DNA of 34,429 nt from a virus (Duplodnaviria > Heunggongvirae > Uroviricota > Caudoviricetes), in IMG/VR virus record IMGVR_UViG_2693429554_000013. One strand, given 5' to 3'. The stretch's first letter is position 1, and each line of letters begins with the position of its first letter. A program made the translations under genes and the position numbers. Below, piece by piece: positions 4,078 through 11,231 of this stretch. The notes beneath the pieces are model-generated. The model saw only the letters and a program-made list of their open reading frames with translations. It was not told the origin of the DNA and ran no database searches.

Positions 4078-4281
4078 ATGGCAATTAAGCATTTTCCTGT
4101 CGTTCGTTTTACCTCCAGAGGACGTGAATACGAAGTCGACGAACGCCTGATTACCACAATCGACAAACACCGTTCAGAAAAGGATGCACATCACATCTAT
4201 CTCACTGACGGCACTTACTTCTGCGCCACGAATGTGGTGCAGGTGAACCTTATCCGACAGGTACAGGAGTCACGCAGATGA
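4078..4281 (+). CDS. Hypothetical early protein
   Basis: 67 aa; strong SD AAGGAGG upstream of ATG. Confidence 0.55.
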   Translation: MAIKHFPVVRFTSRGREYEVDERLITTIDKHRSEKDAHHIYLTDGTYFCATNVVQVNLIRQVQESRR

Positions 4282-4523
4282 CCATTCTGGATTATATCGC
4301 CGCCAATCCGGGGTGTAGCGGTGGAGAAATCGCCGCAGCACTGAATACCCCAACCACAGCCATTAATGCGGAGTTACGCCGACTCTGGCGCAGCGGTTCA
4401 GTCATAAGAAAAGAGCGCAAAACAGGCGGTCGCTTTTCTTACCAGATAAACCCGATGCCGTTCGGGTGCGGCAATCCACTTACCAACATGTTTAACCAGC
4501 TACTGAAGGAAGCCAGAGCATGA
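4278..4523 (+). CDS. Small winged-helix-like DNA-binding protein
   Basis: 81 aa; ATGA overlap with previous gene; GGEIAAALNTPTTAINAELRRLWRSGSV resembles a winged-helix recognition region. Confidence 0.5.
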   Translation: MTILDYIAANPGCSGGEIAAALNTPTTAINAELRRLWRSGSVIRKERKTGGRFSYQINPMPFGCGNPLTNMFNQLLKEARA

Positions 4524-4819
4524 GCGCCATCAACCACCAGGAATTACGCGAACTGGCGACTGACCTTCAACGAATGGCAACGCATCAAAAATTACTGGCA
4601 TTTCGCGCAATGCTCTCGCCGTCTGCTGTGCTGGCATTGCTGGATGAGCTGGAGCACGCCAGAACCACGGCTCCTGCCATTCGCCTGACGCTCCATCATG
4701 AAATCGCTGATTTCTGCGCGACGTTGGAGGCTCCAGGCGAACCGGAAACGCCGGAAGCGATGCAGCAGGAGCTGCTGCAACGCATCGACAACGTTTTCGA
4801 TTTTTTCCTTAACCAGTAA
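4520..4819 (+). CDS. Hypothetical early protein
   Basis: 99 aa; ATGA overlap with previous gene. Confidence 0.5.
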   Translation: MSAINHQELRELATDLQRMATHQKLLAFRAMLSPSAVLALLDELEHARTTAPAIRLTLHHEIADFCATLEAPGEPETPEAMQQELLQRIDNVFDFFLNQ

Positions 4820-4833
4820 GGGAGTAAATCACA

Positions 4834-5385
4834 ATGAAACTCAAACCAATGGGTACACCTGGTGTGGCTCCGGCACATGTAAAACCATGGACACAGCAGG
4901 AGGATGAACTTTTAGCCACGTTATACCACACCCACACAGCGCCGGAGCTGACAAAGCACCTTCAGAGAACCGAGTCAGCAATACGAAGCCGCATTCGTCT
5001 TTTGCTCTCTCAGGGGGTTATTCACGCCAAACAAACTCCACTGAGTACAAAAGAACTCAGCATGCTCATCAGGAATCGCCACACAAAAACCATCCGGGAA
5101 CTCGCGAATGAGCTGGGGCGCTCGCCATCCACGGTAGAACTGAACCTGAGAAAAAGAGGGTATCGGTTCAGGAAATACGGGGAACTCCACCACAGAACCA
5201 GATACAGCGATCACCTAGTGGAGCTGGTAACTGAACTGCGTGATGAGAAGGGGATGACATTCAGCGAAATCAGGAAGCACATCCGGGACACGACCGGGAT
5301 ATCCCTTAAAAGATGGGTCCCCGCCAGGCTTTACGCACGATATACCGCCGCTGATACCGTGCTTTGCGAACTACTACCGGACTGA
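4834..5385 (+). CDS. Multi-HTH DNA-binding protein with Myb/SANT-like N-terminal segment
   Basis: 183 aa; WTQQEDELLATLY...TESAIRSRIRLL plus two further HTH-like segments (TIRELANELGRSPSTV; MTFSEIRKHIRDTTGISLKRW). Confidence 0.55.
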   Translation: MKLKPMGTPGVAPAHVKPWTQQEDELLATLYHTHTAPELTKHLQRTESAIRSRIRLLLSQGVIHAKQTPLSTKELSMLIRNRHTKTIRELANELGRSPSTVELNLRKRGYRFRKYGELHHRTRYSDHLVELVTELRDEKGMTFSEIRKHIRDTTGISLKRWVPARLYARYTAADTVLCELLPD

Positions 5386-5476
5386 GTAACCACTATGTAC
5401 ACACAAAAAAACCGCTTGCCATGCCGCAATCAGTCAGGTTACATTTCCGCTGCACCTCATAAAACGGGTGCCGGGA

Positions 5477-5694
5477 TTGGAACCCCGCTGACTATACACG
5501 CGCACAACCGCGCCAGCGGTTTTTTTGTGCGTACCGTATCGCCACGTCTTTTTCGCGTCAGAATTATGGTGGGGCGTATGGGGCCGACTTCGGTCGGGCC
5601 GGGTTCGTGTATAGCCGGTAGTTCCAACCCTGTACGTCTCACCACCCCGAGCTTGGAACCTCTGGATGGTGAGTTTTCAAAACTTACTATACAC
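5477..5694. repeat. Three copies of a bipartite motif TTGGAAC(C)-N-CTATACAC (two direct, one inverted) flanking a UUCG-loop hairpin
   Basis: Copies at 5477-5499 (direct), 5607-5629 (inverted), 5653-5694 (direct); hairpin CCGAC-TTCG-GTCGG at 5584-5597. Confidence 0.45.
5506..5527 (+). terminator. Candidate Rho-independent terminator
   Basis: Short GC stem ACCGC/GCGGT with GCCA loop followed by TTTTTT; the stem is short. Confidence 0.35.
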
Positions 5695-5705
5695 GAGGCC
5701 ACACC

Positions 5706-5936
5706 ATGGCAAACCGCAAACAGCACCGCGCTATCGCGGAGCGTCGTCACATCCAGACTGAAATCAACCGCAGACTTTCCCGCGCATTCCGCGTCGCTAA
5801 AATCATGCACATCAATATGCTGCATGAGCGTAGCTGCGAACTTTCAAACCTCTACTCATCCGCTGTTTTCAGCTATCTGGCAGATGATCTGCGCGAGCTT
5901 CAGCAGCTCATCCAGCAGCAAAACAAACTCCATTAA
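5706..5936 (+). CDS. Hypothetical small basic protein
   Basis: 76 aa, charged/helical composition; preferred over the overlapping low-complexity ORF 5395-6012. Confidence 0.5.
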   Translation: MANRKQHRAIAERRHIQTEINRRLSRAFRVAKIMHINMLHERSCELSNLYSSAVFSYLADDLRELQQLIQQQNKLH

Positions 5937-6008
5937 TTCTGGTTCCGGGCCTTTCCTGCACCTTGCGGCGGGAGGCCTTCGCACATCTGTAACAAGAGGA
6001 TTGCCGCA

Positions 6009-6374
6009 ATGATTCTCGCCAACGACTTTCTTGAATACCTGCTCAACACAGAGCGCGATCTTGCCGTTCGCGCGCGTGACCGTTATGACATGTACCTGAA
6101 ATCCCTGCCTGTACCACAGCCCGCTGACGGAAAGATTGTTATTGATGGCCGCTACATGATTGACAGCCACGAGGGAAATTACAGGCTTTACCGCATTGAA
6201 GGCGGCACCCCGTCCGTTATTGGCATTTACCAGCGCCCATCCTCTGCAATCGTCGATGTGATTGCAGACAGCATCCGCATCACACATCGCTATGCCGACA
6301 CAGAAGACACCGTGCTGGAAATTCAGCGGCTGGCTACAGTCTGCCGCGACACCCTGAACGGTATGACGAAGTAA
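6009..6374 (+). CDS. Hypothetical protein upstream of the replication gene
   Basis: 121 aa; RBS AGAGGA; no motif recognised. Confidence 0.5.
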   Translation: MILANDFLEYLLNTERDLAVRARDRYDMYLKSLPVPQPADGKIVIDGRYMIDSHEGNYRLYRIEGGTPSVIGIYQRPSSAIVDVIADSIRITHRYADTEDTVLEIQRLATVCRDTLNGMTK

Positions 6375-6380
6375 ATCACT

Positions 6381-9203
6381 ATGACGACAGAGTACATCAG
6401 GGACTGGCAACAACCGCGCCACGCAGTCGGTCGCGAAGGAACAGGGATCCCCGCACCTGAGTCTGCACTTTCCTCCTGGCTGGATGCCTACCGGACTGAG
6501 AACGAGCGCCGCCAGGAAATGGCTGATGCGGCGTTCTCCGCCACGCCGCTGGGCAACCTGATTAATAAAAGCCTGGACGCACAGGAAAAACAGGACAAAA
6601 CCATCACCCTGGCAGGAGATGCCAGAAAGCAGGCACGCGGCGCGGTGGATGAAGCCATGGCCTCGCTGCGCCTGCTGCCGTCCTATCTGCGCGATCCGCT
6701 TATTCGCCACCTCTCCTTCCTGCGCAAAAAACAGGAAGCCGATCGCCGGAAAGGCAAAAAGAGCTGGCAGGCTGAACGCTACGCGCGCGGAACCCTGCGC
6801 AAAATATTCGAACGTCTGGACCGCACCGACCACCGCTGGCTGACACCGGGTTATCGCTCCCTTGCAGGACGCGAACGCCTGGATGATTTGCTTTACCTGC
6901 CGCAGCTCAACAAGCACCAGATACAGACGCTGGCCACCATGACGGCGGCGATGTTCAGCAGCACCTTCGAAAAACTCTGCGATGGCTTTGGCGCGACTGA
7001 TGGCGAGCTGACCATGGATGTAACCCTGAAGGCGTATCAGATGCTGGCCCGCATGGCGTTACACCTGCACGCCATGCCTCCGCATTATGACGCACTGACA
7101 ACAGATAAAGACCGGAGGAACGAACCGGATACGGAGCTGCTGCCGGGCGCAGTCCTTCGCCTGACTTGTGCGGAATGGTGGAAACGCAAACTGTGGCTGT
7201 TACGTTGCGAGTGGAGAGAAGAACAACTCCGCGCCGCCTGTCTGGTTTCCAGAAAAACATCGCCCTATCTGAGCCAGGACGCATTAAGCGAGTTTCGCGC
7301 ACAGCGCGAGAAAACACGCGATTTCCTGAAAAGTTTCATGCTGGAAAACGAAGACGGGTTCACGATTGATCTCGAGACGGTGTATTACGCGGGAGTAAGT
7401 AACCCGGTTCACCGTAAGGCAGAAATGATGGCCACCATGAAGGGGCTGGAACTTCTGGCCGAAGCCCGTGGCGACAAAGCGGTGTTTCTGACCGTCACCT
7501 GCCCGTCAAAATACCACGCCACAACAGAGAACGGTCATCCGAATCCCAAATGGAACGGGGCCACCATGCGCGACTCCAGCGATTACCTGGTTAACACGTT
7601 TTTTGCGGCGGTCCGCAAAAAACTGAACCGCGACGGCCTGCGCTGGTATGGCATCCGCACGGTGGAGCCTCACCATGACGGCACCGTGCACTGGCACATG
7701 ATGGTCTTTGCTCATCCGGAAGAAATCGACAGCATCGTGGCCATCACCCGCGATATTGCCATTCAGGAAGACCGCCACGAGCTGGGCGATGACATAACTC
7801 CGCGTTTTAAGGCGGAGTACGTCGACGGCTCAAAAGGCACGCCAACCAGCTACATCGCCACCTACATCGGAAAGAACCTGGACAGCCGCGCCGTGGATGG
7901 CATCGACCCGAAAACGGGCAAGCCACGCGTTGACCACGAAACCGGAAAATCAATGGCCGAGAGTGTGGAACGCGCCATCGGCTGGGCGCGCCTTCACCGG
8001 GTCCGCCAGTTCCAGTTCTTTGGCATCCCCTCCCGTCAGGTATGGCGTGAACTCCGCCGCCTTGCCAGCCAGATGGCACGCAACCCGGAAGGCCCACAAC
8101 GGCTGAAGGATGATGCAATGGATGCGGTACTCGCTGCCGCTGATGCCGGGTGTTTTGCCACCTACATTGAGAAACAGGGCGGCGTACTTGTTCCACGCAA
8201 AGACTACCTGATTCGCACCGCCTACGACCTCGCAGATGAGCTGAACGATTACGGTGAACAGAGCGTACAGATTTACGGGATCTGGTCGCCGCTCATCGGG
8301 GAGTCTTCCCGCGTATGCACGCATCCGGATAACTGGAAGCTGGTAAGACGCAAACCGGAAGCGGAAGACAGCGCCCGCGAAAATGGTTTTGACCTTCAGG
8401 GCGGCCCTGCCGCCCCTTGGACTCGTGGCAATAACTGTCCCCATGTACAGGAAACGGACAACAACGGGACAGAACAGCCGGAAGAACGGCCAGCACCGTG
8501 GCCGCAGCTCCCTGGCGGCGTTGAAGTGAACGAATGGATGCGCTCACTGAAACGGCACGAACGCCGGGCGCTGATGCGTTCGCTGCGTGACAAGCAGGCA
8601 AAAAACAGCAGTGATGAAATGCAGAACTGGACACAGAGCCGCAAACAGCCACAGCCTTTGCCTGATAACCACGAATTACTCGCTAAAGAATGGCGGGAGT
8701 CTGCCGAATCTCTCGGCCTGCATATCGGTGAACAGCAGATGCAGCACCTGTTACGGGGCGGCAGCCTGTACGTTGACGGCAGCATCATTGCACCACAGGG
8801 ATTTGAAATTGTACGCAAACCGGATACCCGCCCGGACAGCCGAATCACACAGCTCTGGCAGCACCTGAGCCGTAATCACGGCGTAAGCAGCACGGAGATC
8901 CGCCATAACCCGGTCGCCAGCTATCTGGCACAGCTGGGGGCATCAGACCCCGAAGCCGCCGCACGTCTGGCATCCACACTTCAGCAGGACCAGAACACCA
9001 TGAAAACCCCCGTTACCGTGCTTTCTGACATGCTGCGCGTCATCCGTGACGCAGAGCACGCACAGAGAATCAGTGAAACAACTGAACGCGCCCGCCGCAA
9101 AGCAGACCTGCTGCGGGGTGGCCTGACCAGTGGAAACAAAAAACAGACAGAAACGGGATTCACAAATCCCGTAAATGAGCAAAAAACGCACCGCGATATA
9201 TGA
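6381..9203 (+). CDS. Rolling-circle replication initiator endonuclease, P2 gpA family
   Basis: 940 aa; metal-binding motif EPHHDGTVHWHMMVF and paired-tyrosine motif YIATYIGK typical of the P2 A / phiX174 A superfamily; long C-terminal region. Confidence 0.85.
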   Translation: MTTEYIRDWQQPRHAVGREGTGIPAPESALSSWLDAYRTENERRQEMADAAFSATPLGNLINKSLDAQEKQDKTITLAGDARKQARGAVDEAMASLRLLPSYLRDPLIRHLSFLRKKQEADRRKGKKSWQAERYARGTLRKIFERLDRTDHRWLTPGYRSLAGRERLDDLLYLPQLNKHQIQTLATMTAAMFSSTFEKLCDGFGATDGELTMDVTLKAYQMLARMALHLHAMPPHYDALTTDKDRRNEPDTELLPGAVLRLTCAEWWKRKLWLLRCEWREEQLRAACLVSRKTSPYLSQDALSEFRAQREKTRDFLKSFMLENEDGFTIDLETVYYAGVSNPVHRKAEMMATMKGLELLAEARGDKAVFLTVTCPSKYHATTENGHPNPKWNGATMRDSSDYLVNTFFAAVRKKLNRDGLRWYGIRTVEPHHDGTVHWHMMVFAHPEEIDSIVAITRDIAIQEDRHELGDDITPRFKAEYVDGSKGTPTSYIATYIGKNLDSRAVDGIDPKTGKPRVDHETGKSMAESVERAIGWARLHRVRQFQFFGIPSRQVWRELRRLASQMARNPEGPQRLKDDAMDAVLAAADAGCFATYIEKQGGVLVPRKDYLIRTAYDLADELNDYGEQSVQIYGIWSPLIGESSRVCTHPDNWKLVRRKPEAEDSARENGFDLQGGPAAPWTRGNNCPHVQETDNNGTEQPEERPAPWPQLPGGVEVNEWMRSLKRHERRALMRSLRDKQAKNSSDEMQNWTQSRKQPQPLPDNHELLAKEWRESAESLGLHIGEQQMQHLLRGGSLYVDGSIIAPQGFEIVRKPDTRPDSRITQLWQHLSRNHGVSSTEIRHNPVASYLAQLGASDPEAAARLASTLQQDQNTMKTPVTVLSDMLRVIRDAEHAQRISETTERARRKADLLRGGLTSGNKKQTETGFTNPVNEQKTHRDI

Positions 9204-9244
9204 AGCGCGCACAAAACAGGCAAAAACGGGATTTAAAAATCCCG
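9152..9244. promoter_or_regulatory. Two 20-bp palindromes ACGGGATT-N4-AATCCCGT 73 bp apart, upstream of parM; candidate parC centromere/operator
   Basis: Palindromes at 9152-9171 (inside the 3' end of the gpA-like gene) and 9225-9244; part of a ~40-bp direct duplication. Confidence 0.45.
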
Positions 9245-9279
9245 TAAACGATTAATTAACCAACATAAGGAAAAGCGAC

Positions 9280-10239
9280 ATGAAAATTTGTATCGACGAC
9301 GGCTCCACCAACATCAAGCTGGCATGGACTGAGAATGGCGAACGCCGCAACGCCATCAGCCCGAACAGCTTCAAGTCGGAATGGTCTGCGCCGTTCGGTG
9401 GCATGCAGCCCGCGAACTACATGCTTGATGGCGTGCGCTATGGTTTTGATCCGGTCAGCGATCGCTTTGTCCAGACGACCGACACGCAATACCAGTACAG
9501 CGATGTGAATGTCATTGCCATTCATCACGCGCTGGTCAAATCAGGCATCACACCACAGGAAGTGGATGTGGTTGTCACCCTGCCACTGAGCGAGTATTTC
9601 GATACAAACGCACAGCCGGACATGGCCAACATCAACCGCAAAAAAGCGAACGTCATGCGCCCGGTGGAGTACCAGAACGGCGAAGCATTCACTATCCGTA
9701 ACGTACGGGTTATGCCTGAATCCATTCCGGCTGGCTTTAAGGCACTGGCTGACATGAGTCCGTTTGAATCCCTGCTGATTGTGGATTTGGGCGGAACCAC
9801 GCTGGATGTGGCAAAGGTTCAGGGGCAACTGGCAGGTATCAGCCAGGTGTTTTGCGATCCACACGTAGGCGTTTCTCTGATGGCCGATGCCGTGCTGTCG
9901 GTGATGGCCACCAACGGTATGCGCACCAGTCACCACATCGCCAATACCATTATCGAACATCGCCACGATGAAGCCTGGCTGCGCCAGCACATCCACAATG
10001 ACGCGCATTACGCCAGCCTGATGGCAGTTATTCGTGAAAAGGAGGAAACACTGAAACAACGCGTGATCCGCGCGCTGGCGGGTTTTTCGGGTTACGGGCG
10101 GGTGATGGTTGTAGGTGGAGGAGCGGAGATTGTGGCACCCGCTATCCGCGAAGCCTGCGGAGTTAATGCGACTTTCATCGCGGACGGGGTGCCACAGTTT
10201 GCTCTGGTTAATGGGCTGTACGCAATGGACAAGGAGTAA
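9280..10239 (+). CDS. parM: ParM/StbA-family actin-like segregation ATPase
   Basis: 319 aa; N-terminus MKICIDDGSTNIKLAW and motifs ISPNSFK, YQYSDVNV, LIVDLGGTTLDV match my recollection of plasmid R1 ParM. Confidence 0.85.
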   Translation: MKICIDDGSTNIKLAWTENGERRNAISPNSFKSEWSAPFGGMQPANYMLDGVRYGFDPVSDRFVQTTDTQYQYSDVNVIAIHHALVKSGITPQEVDVVVTLPLSEYFDTNAQPDMANINRKKANVMRPVEYQNGEAFTIRNVRVMPESIPAGFKALADMSPFESLLIVDLGGTTLDVAKVQGQLAGISQVFCDPHVGVSLMADAVLSVMATNGMRTSHHIANTIIEHRHDEAWLRQHIHNDAHYASLMAVIREKEETLKQRVIRALAGFSGYGRVMVVGGGAEIVAPAIREACGVNATFIADGVPQFALVNGLYAMDKE

Positions 10240-10243
10240 ATCA

Positions 10244-10558
10244 ATGACGACACCAACCAGACGGATAAGTTTCTATCTGAAGCCCGCCGTCGTCAAGAGC
10301 GAACGGGAGGCGTGTAATTACCTCGACAGCCTGCCAGCCTCCGAACGCAGCCGCGCACAACGCGCGGCTTTTCTGGCTGGACTGGCTCTTATAAAACGCA
10401 CCCCCGCGTTGGCGTATTCGCTGGCAGAATGGTCAGAAGACGAAATACGGATGCCACCGCTACCAGTACAGCCTGAAAAACCGGCGCAACCAGCAGCAGA
10501 CAGCGCCCCCCATATGCAGCAGGTGAAAAAGAATATTCAGGCGTTTTTCCCGAAGTGA
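10244..10558 (+). CDS. parR: ParR/StbB-like centromere-binding adaptor
   Basis: 104 aa; RRISFYLKPAVVKSEREACNYLDSLPASERSRAQRAAFLAGLALIKR aligns with my recollection of R1 ParR; AGGAG RBS; ORF-track start 10115 is in frame but overlaps parM. Confidence 0.7.
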   Translation: MTTPTRRISFYLKPAVVKSEREACNYLDSLPASERSRAQRAAFLAGLALIKRTPALAYSLAEWSEDEIRMPPLPVQPEKPAQPAADSAPHMQQVKKNIQAFFPK

Positions 10559-10572
10559 AAACAGGAGTAACT

Positions 10573-10860
10573 ATGTCCACCATTACCAAAAAATGGTTAC
10601 AACGTAAAATCACAGAGTTTAAATCGTGGCGCGAAGACATCCCGTTCGGTCTTGATGAAGACGATCACAATATGTTAATCGCACTGGAAATCGCACTTGC
10701 ATCACTGGAAGCAGAGCCAGTGGCATGGATGCACGCAAATAATCCTATTGGAATACCGGCGATAACAAGAAGTAAAGATGTTGCAGACAGCTGGCGCTCT
10801 AAGGGATGGAATGTATTGCCTCTTTATTCACTGACCCGCCCCATCAATTTATGCCATTAA
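10573..10860 (+). CDS. Hypothetical protein in AT-rich insert
   Basis: 95 aa from ATG 10573 (RBS AGGAG); AT-rich by eye. Confidence 0.5.
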   Translation: MSTITKKWLQRKITEFKSWREDIPFGLDEDDHNMLIALEIALASLEAEPVAWMHANNPIGIPAITRSKDVADSWRSKGWNVLPLYSLTRPINLCH

Positions 10861-10871
10861 TGGAAGTAATC

Positions 10872-11231
10872 ATGATGAAAGATAATTCCGGAAGCCAGCG
10901 TGCATCAGTTGCAGTTATGGTAATGATTAAATTTGTGAAACAGTACACCGGAAAGCCAATTTCGCTCCGGCAATTAAGCAAAGAAACCGTTTCACTGTCA
11001 TATCTGGAGCAAATATTCAGATATTTACGGGAAAGTAGCCTGGTAAAAGCCACACGCGGCCCGGGTGGTGGATATATCCCGACAAAAGAAAATTACAGTG
11101 TTGGTGATATTGTCCGGGCAATGAAATGTTCCGGATTATATACACAGCACGTTATTCTGGCTGCACTGGATAATATTTCTTTAACCAGCCTGCAGGAAGA
11201 CACAAATTATCAGTTGTCTGCCATTGAATAA
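10872..11231 (+). CDS. Rrf2-family-like transcriptional regulator, short form
   Basis: 119 aa; ISLSYLEQIFRYLRESSLVKATRGPGGGY matches the Rrf2/IscR winged-helix signature as I recall it; lacks the three-Cys cluster. Confidence 0.6.
   Translation: MMKDNSGSQRASVAVMVMIKFVKQYTGKPISLRQLSKETVSLSYLEQIFRYLRESSLVKATRGPGGGYIPTKENYSVGDIVRAMKCSGLYTQHVILAALDNISLTSLQEDTNYQLSAIE

Follow-up and report, generated by a model that had tools for sequence, protein, structure and literature searches.

Two diverged direct repeats of about 50 bp, each centred on a palindrome, lie where the gpA-like replication initiator gene meets parM in a P88-like prophage (Xuanwuvirus, Peduoviridae, P2-like), and both belong to a discrete parC-parM-parR cassette spanning 9138-10558. 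The left limit of this cassette is at 9136-9138, the first bases of repeat 1. All positions are those of the window, by which we mean the whole 34,429-nt stretch (IMG/VR record IMGVR_UViG_2693429554_000013) counted from its first letter. Since the two units stand directly upstream of parM, move with parMR and accompany a ParR of known family, we consider them probably to be the centromere-like parC of a type II ParMRC cassette occupying the gpA-gpQ cargo hotspot. They would thereby give a concrete candidate centromere (two units, 9138-9260) to a ParMRC cassette carried by about one quarter of complete Escherichia coli genomes.

Two palindrome-centred repeats at the gpA-parM junction

The direct repeats at 9137-9187 and 9210-9260 align without gaps over 51 nt, with 41 matches (80%), and start 73 bp apart. 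A preliminary description of this DNA had quoted both sequences, which are indeed present where it placed them, and its call for an alignment of the two copies is answered by this degree of identity. When 8900-9400 was shuffled 300 times under a first-order Markov model, the best 51-nt window reached a maximum of 31 matches, as against the 41 observed. Each repeat is built on the palindrome ACGGGATT-N4-AATCCCGT, which occurs exactly twice in the window (Table 1), even with three mismatches allowed, where 0.16 occurrences would be expected by chance. Reading the units by eye, we also discern two 10-bp direct sub-repeats in each (AAAACAGGC / AAAACGGGA) and one inverted, at most two and degenerate, while AAAAC motifs recur in helical phase across the parC region.

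The repeat arrangement is kept in phages P88, Shae_phiSM and 503458, as it is in over 100 contigs of IMG/VR. A search of that collection for the palindrome returned 120 contigs, of which 115 represent the gpA-parM junction in this phage group and the other five carry unrelated single palindromes. In every contig whose neighbourhood is visible, parM accompanies the palindrome, which bears out the earlier proposal of a cis element tied to the partition module. Junction variants were collected through an anchor at the parM start, so that the palindrome itself was not selected on; the 132 junctions so obtained reduce to 105 unique sequences. The 73-bp spacing recurs in 122 of 133 junctions. Variation is concentrated between the units, with 38% of the sites in 9181-9209 showing a minor count of at least 4, compared with 9-19% within the units themselves. 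The junction varies least in the A-rich 5' flanks, and changes in the palindrome cores are absent or rare (GGG/CCC in palindrome 1; GG/CC and ATT/AAT in palindrome 2). One IMG/VR contig departs from the arrangement: in IMGVR_UViG_2874920711_000009 (about 500-560), unit 2 stands alone before parM, the sequence upstream of about 9221 is unrelated and the parM match extends over 91 aa, which looks like a rearranged or decaying copy.

The repeats travel with parMR behind unrelated upstream genes

Three unrelated upstream contexts join the same DNA at 9136-9138. The first is found in an IMG/VR contig (L050) and in the chromosome of E. coli SWHEFF_58 (L130), which carry a different gpA of 768-773 aa (32% identity) and an extra ORF of 151-159 aa. 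There, homology to the window begins at 9138, the first base of unit 1, and unit 1 is non-coding, lying 41-42 nt past the stop of the preceding ORF. In the second context (L070), a third unrelated ORF of 145 aa stops within palindrome 1 in another frame (...KRDSQIP-stop); the P88 type is the third. When L130 and L070 were compared with P88 by blastn, homology began at the first base of unit 1 and ceased at the parR stop codon, with nothing beyond it. Because the repeats stand behind three unrelated upstream genes, the candidate centromere was not copied from gpA. The preliminary description had favoured a duplication of the 3' end of the replication gene as the origin of the palindromes, and this does not hold; its alternative, that recombination joined the partition module to the phage and left this footprint, is correct in essence, with the boundary at 9136-9138.

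A par-less control is provided by E. coli E06, whose P88-type gpA is 95.5% identical up to window position 9117 and ends ...GLLQDKGNSEKKK-stop (GNSEKKK-stop) where the window has ...GGLTSGNKK followed by a 21-residue tail. No repeats follow gpA in E06, and IetA/IetS replaces parMR (PADLOC, E = 1e-77 and 5e-15). The preliminary description had asked for such a comparison, reasoning that the same duplicated 3' end in related phages without parMR would imply an unrelated function such as a terminator; in E06 both the tail and the repeats are missing, so that the proposed tie to parMR withstood this check. The IetA/IetS defence pair (AAA ATPase and S8 peptidase; 4228-6539 of locus L129, from the E06 chromosome NZ_CM143910.1) sits at the position of parC-parM-parR, which suggests direct cargo exchange at one hotspot boundary.

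The cassette itself has the position of hotspot cargo: gpA precedes it, the portal gene lies beyond it, and phages that are otherwise alike carry other cargo in its place. By the alignments described above, the left recombination boundary of the P2-type gpA-gpQ hotspot would lie inside the gpA 3' end, and each cargo (parCMR here, IetAS in E06) would therefore supply its own last gpA codons and stop. We regard this as ordinary modular phage evolution that opens no new kind of biology. Relative to the literature searched, the parC anatomy, the exact cassette limits and the placement of the left hotspot boundary within the gpA 3' end appear to be new, and no earlier study of this parC came up when papers on ParM in Xuanwuvirus or P88 were sought.

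The two units as a candidate centromere

Apart from the cis site, the cassette encodes the two proteins expected of a type II partition locus. ParM is covered over residues 1-316 by PF06406 and PF21523, as befits an actin-like ATPase. The ParR match to PF10784 scores 86 bits against a cut-off of 25, in keeping with a small adaptor, and residues 6-62 align to the ribbon-helix-helix part of pB171 ParR (PDB 2JD3) with E = 0.008. The parR gene begins 5 nt after the parM stop. A repeated cis site completes the locus, in the form of two 51-nt direct repeats that end 20 nt before parM and move with parMR.

ParR alleles are 49-99% identical to that of the window, and all of the variation falls in the central linker. 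Essentially no variation is seen in the N-terminal MTTPTRRISFYLKP, aligned with the beta-strand region of pB171 ParR, or in a C-terminal NIxAxFPE/K motif. A parallel pattern is thus seen on the two sides, the ParR N-terminus being constant across alleles and the repeat cores likewise. Homologue searches with ParR yielded nothing but further alleles of this cassette, from Escherichia, Salmonella, Shigella and Hafnia. Across loci L001-L125, ParM is 95-100% identical while the adjacent ParR diverges in a central linker of about 30 residues, a pattern that either diversifying selection or a loosening of constraint in a disordered linker could produce.

If the units are parC, each would be bound by ParR dimers at its CGGGA/TCCCG core and its phased A-rich flanks. 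As 73 bp corresponds to about seven helical turns, the units would be presented on the same face of the DNA. The ParR-DNA complex would then capture the ends of ParM filaments through the conserved C-terminal motif of ParR, and the filaments might push or position extrachromosomal phage genomes after infection, after excision or in a rare plasmid state.

Several points weigh against a centromere. Recognition of parC by ParR is argued from position and co-occurrence only. The units are just two and palindrome-centred, as opposed to arrays of direct repeats, and the 10-bp sub-repeats within them were read by eye. No promoter was detected within parC, unlike in R1, and both palindromes also fit a terminator pattern on the minus strand. 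The arms are not strictly kept: the pair 9159/9166 is broken in 29 of 104 unique sequences, and palindrome 2 often carries A>G or C>T changes. Finally, the junction is present in 1372 of 5426 complete E. coli genomes, at 1532 chromosomal places and 2 on plasmids, and with nearly all copies chromosomal a classical role in plasmid maintenance is not obviously needed.

It is unlikely that the repeats are an operator only, or the site of some other phage or host protein such as an early-operon regulator, controlling parMR or gpA without any centromere function. The R1 parC iterons reportedly double as the operator of the par promoter (Dam & Gerdes, 1994, as cited in PMC9426499), and unit 2 ends within 20 nt of the parM start, as an operator might. 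A scan for sigma-70 consensus promoters found none in or next to the units at the threshold used, either in the window or in P88; from this, parMR is probably co-transcribed with gpA from the early operon. Moreover, the units are strictly linked to parMR whatever gpA or other gene precedes them, and this independence of the upstream gene suggests ParR as the partner. In known ParMRC loci, a site may in any case serve as both operator and centromere.

We also find it improbable that the palindromes act as hairpins, be they tandem minus-strand Rho-independent terminators for transcripts from the late/ogr side or stem-loops that stabilise or process the gpA/parM mRNA. On the minus strand each does form a terminator-like 8-bp stem with four G-C pairs, followed by TTTTGCCTGT or TTCTGTCTGT. 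Folded as plus-strand RNA, 9125-9285 does better than shuffles (z-score -3.3) because of the two hairpins, and the two common variants of palindrome 2 form G-T pairs on this strand. On the other side, the plus strand lacks a U-tract, and no minus-strand gene ends at the junction: the nearest such unit, ogr, is served by a separate terminator-like site about 2 kb off, at 11248-11236. Not one of the 16 pairs shows a compensatory double change, and the change commonly seen in palindrome 1 makes a C-A mismatch on the plus strand. Conservation of the repeat also extends about 15 nt beyond the 5' side of each hairpin, more than a terminator requires, and an Rfam scan of 8800-9500 gave a sub-threshold chance match only. 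The palindromes move with parMR and not with gpA, and are gone where IetAS replaces parMR.

The gpA tail is read-through into the cassette

In the frame of gpA, copy 1 is translated: the ORF ends ...GNKKQTETGFTNPVNEQKTHRDI-stop and its tail reads ...KKQTETGFTNPVNEQKTHRDI-stop. The body of gpA ends at about 9137, and codons 920-940 (QTETGFTNPVNEQKTHRDI, from 9138) together with the stop come from the par cassette. The final 22 codons result from gpA running on into the cassette and do not represent a conserved protein feature, and the coding overlap is a by-product of the site at which cassette and gpA were joined. Indeed, the tail does not behave like a conserved C-terminal motif: it is missing from par-less gpA, frameshifted in natural variants and free of third-position bias. 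In a count of variable sites at codon positions 1/2/3 that took in 101 sequences, the gpA body (8934-9137) gave 6/4/14, the tail (9138-9200) 5/3/4 and a 26-codon ORF at 9175-9255 5/8/6. Indels of 1 or 2 nt are present in about 17 of the 132 junctions and lead to very different C-termini of gpA (...NRQKRDSQIP-stop, ...TDRNGIHKSRK-stop, or a fusion in the frame of copy 2, ...KTGFQNPVND-stop). The fusion arises in five junctions from a 1-nt deletion in an A6 run (9181-9186). Matches by tblastn that seemed to carry gpA through copy 2 in loci L043, L106 and L118 were discarded, the alignment having crossed a stop codon after a 1-nt deletion.

Copy 2 had been said to read KTGFKNPVND-stop in frame. 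The peptide is indeed ...KTGFKNPVND-stop, but its frame is +1 with respect to that of gpA and it lies past the gpA stop at 9201-9203, within the ORF at 9175-9255; it is therefore not part of gpA in the window. We considered this ORF as a small gene of its own and rejected it; with no Shine-Dalgarno sequence before its ATG at 9175 and no codon-position signal, it is probably untranslated and not a gene. Nor can the repeats as a whole be derived from coding sequence, as the preliminary description had it, given that copy 1 is non-coding in L050/L130 and in another frame in L070 and that the gpA tail is without constraint at the protein level. It is accordingly very unlikely that the gpA 3' end was duplicated to yield a peptide, (K/E)TGF(T/K)NPVN(E/D), serving as a functional C-terminal motif of the initiator or of a small protein, with the palindromes secondary: similar peptides from both copies, the five A6-run fusions and a 9175-9255 ORF that is intact in most variants are what this explanation can offer, and against it stand the tail-less par-less gpA, the non-coding or differently framed copy 1, the naturally frameshifted tails, the third-position enrichment seen in the gpA body and in neither tail nor mini-ORF, and the missing Shine-Dalgarno sequence.

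The point has a bearing on annotation. In SWHEFF_58-type phages, PGAP labels the region of unit 1 as a 'DNA replication protein' pseudogene fragment; both this pseudogene and the C-terminal tail of gpA would be centromere DNA, not functional remnants of a gene.

Comparison with known partition systems

Characterised ParR proteins bind arrays of direct 10-20-bp repeats; the parC of R1 consists of ten 11-bp direct repeats that flank the promoter as two sets of five, and the direct repeats bound by pB171 ParR measure 10 bp (PMC9426499). Like R1 parMRC and pB171 par1, the phage cassette has the order cis site, parM, parR, with a repeated site directly upstream of parM, as also in pCW3. Its proteins share the StbA_N and ParM C-terminal Pfam domains of ParM and the PF10784 domain of ParR, the latter with the ribbon-helix-helix alignment to pB171 ParR. 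By contrast, the phage units do not show the R1/pB171-type parC architecture of 10-11-bp iteron arrays flanking a promoter: the site comprises a pair of units, each about 50 bp long and centred on an 8+8-bp palindrome, that lie 73 bp apart with no consensus promoter between them. The replicon is also different, being an integrating P2-like prophage in which an upstream gene overlaps the first unit.

The closest plasmid parM genes that we found, those of IncL/M plasmids such as pEL60, have about 67% DNA identity. In pEL60 (Erwinia amylovora; L004, 1340-1480), 10-bp direct iterons (CTGTATTTTTC) form two clusters upstream of parM, and these are 73 bp apart from start to start, the same spacing as that of the phage units. 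We nonetheless rejected the IncL/M parC as the same site, since its direct iterons have no motif in common with the phage parC. Palindromic units do have a precedent in the chromosomal cParCMR of Clostridium botulinum, whose parC of three palindromic repeats is bound by its ParR in a gel-shift (EMSA) test, according to the accessible part of the report (PMC12270681). In that part, a figure legend places the repeats after cParR and the main text immediately upstream of cParMR. The clostridial site differs in having three repeats, a Gram-positive host and proteins unrelated in sequence.

A putative plasmid partitioning system was reported in about one quarter of E. coli P2-like phages, in the gpA-gpQ hotspot (Rousset et al., 2022; PMC9122126). 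The locus is the same and the cassette evidently so too, and the frequency of about one quarter fits the 1372 of 5426 genomes counted here. The part of that paper accessible to us deals with the genes only; the parC repeats, the cassette limits and the gpA read-through come from the present analysis.

Partition modules are also known from other integrated elements. AlpAC of the Corynebacterium glutamicum prophage CGP3 acts on the excised circle for efficient replication and positioning (PMC4446434), and SrpMRC of SXT/R391 integrative and conjugative elements acts on the excised circular form for partition (PMC4489591). Both resemble the phage cassette in combining an actin-like filament protein, a DNA-binding adaptor and a repeated upstream site within an integrated element. 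Their proteins are unrelated in sequence to those of the cassette as far as compared, and the P88-type cassette, unlike these two systems, is known from sequence alone; in CGP3, moreover, the adaptor gene precedes the actin gene.

By analogy with CGP3, the overlap between unit 1 and gpA might be put to use, a possibility that we regard as doubtful. The ParR complex on unit 1 would cover the last 66 nt of the gene for the cis-acting initiator, near the origin suggested by P2 homology, and such a segrosome could control whether early-operon transcription continues into parMR or link the expression or action of gpA to genome positioning. The cassette would then organise replicating phage DNA, as AlpAC does in CGP3, and not serve plasmid upkeep. 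Within gpA, 7881-8612 is homologous to a segment of P2 gene A annotated 'nick site at ori', which would place the presumed origin about 0.6-1.3 kb upstream of parC.

Prophage setting and neighbouring genes

The prophage carries, in order, the integrase, an early operon ending in gpA, parM, parR, a hypothetical gene and an Rrf2 regulator, with ogr, the portal and the terminase genes on the opposite strand. The features of the junction and cassette are collected in Table 1. Over 8000-10700, the window is 94-97% identical to Escherichia phages P88, P884B11, 520873 and 503458, Citrobacter phage Shae_phiSM and others. Across the junction, a 1.1-kb segment (8600-9700) has a match of 100% identity in the chromosome of E. 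coli strain 48956; there the element adjoins yecA.

Table 1. Coordinates of the gpA-parM junction and the parC-parM-parR cassette in the window.
Feature	Position	Strand	Evidence or remarks
gpA-like replication initiator, 940 aa	6381..9203	+	Pfam PF05840, E = 5e-131
parC-parM-parR mobile cassette, ~1.42 kb	9138..10558	+	blastn of L130 and L070 against P88
Candidate parC repeat unit 1	9138..9187	.	A-rich 5' flank AAAAAACAGACAGAA, palindrome 1 and 3' flank; overlapped by the last 22 codons of gpA
Palindrome 1, ACGGGATT-CACA-AATCCCGT	9153..9172	.	GGG/CCC core invariant in 104 unique junction sequences
26-codon ORF, MSKKRTAIYEARTKQAKTGFKNPVND-stop	9175..9255	+	Overlaps the gpA stop and covers unit 2; open in most of ~130 variants
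Spacer between units	9188..9209	.	Contains the gpA stop (9201-9203); most variable stretch of the junction
Candidate parC repeat unit 2	9210..9260	.	Flank CACAAAACAGGCAAAA, palindrome 2 and flank AAACGATTAATTAAC; intergenic; ends 20 nt before the parM start codon
Palindrome 2, ACGGGATT-TAAA-AATCCCGT	9226..9245	.	Direct-repeat and palindrome scans; junction variants
parM, actin-like segregation ATPase	9280..10239	+	PF06406, 2.7e-82 (275 bits); PF21523, 1.3e-68 (230 bits); PHROG 691 partition protein
parR, predicted ribbon-helix-helix centromere-binding adaptor, 104 aa	10244..10558	+	PF10784, 1.4e-24

A search of genome contigs with ParM gave three near-identical loci only. Among the loci compared, L127 (NZ_JBQPOM010000071.1), a 226-kb contig labelled Vagococcus sp. 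WN89Y, encodes a ParM 98% identical to that of the window; for such a protein in a genome labelled as Gram-positive, assembly contamination or mislabelling is the likeliest explanation. A further locus (L005; PLSDB NZ_CP148288.1, circular, 34,461 bp, from a cat E. coli) is a complete P88-like genome deposited as a non-mobilisable plasmid, including gpA, parM, parR and the terminase and capsid genes. It could represent a genuine plasmid state or an excised replicative form caught in the assembly.

Downstream of parR, 10573-11231 encodes a 95-aa hypothetical protein and the Rrf2-family regulator (Pfam PF02082, E = 4e-13). PADLOC gave no match for ParM, ParR, the 95-aa hypothetical protein or the Rrf2 regulator, so that a defence role for these four genes is unsupported. 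Gene content at this position varies among relatives, P88 having different small ORFs where the window has the hypothetical gene and the Rrf2 regulator.

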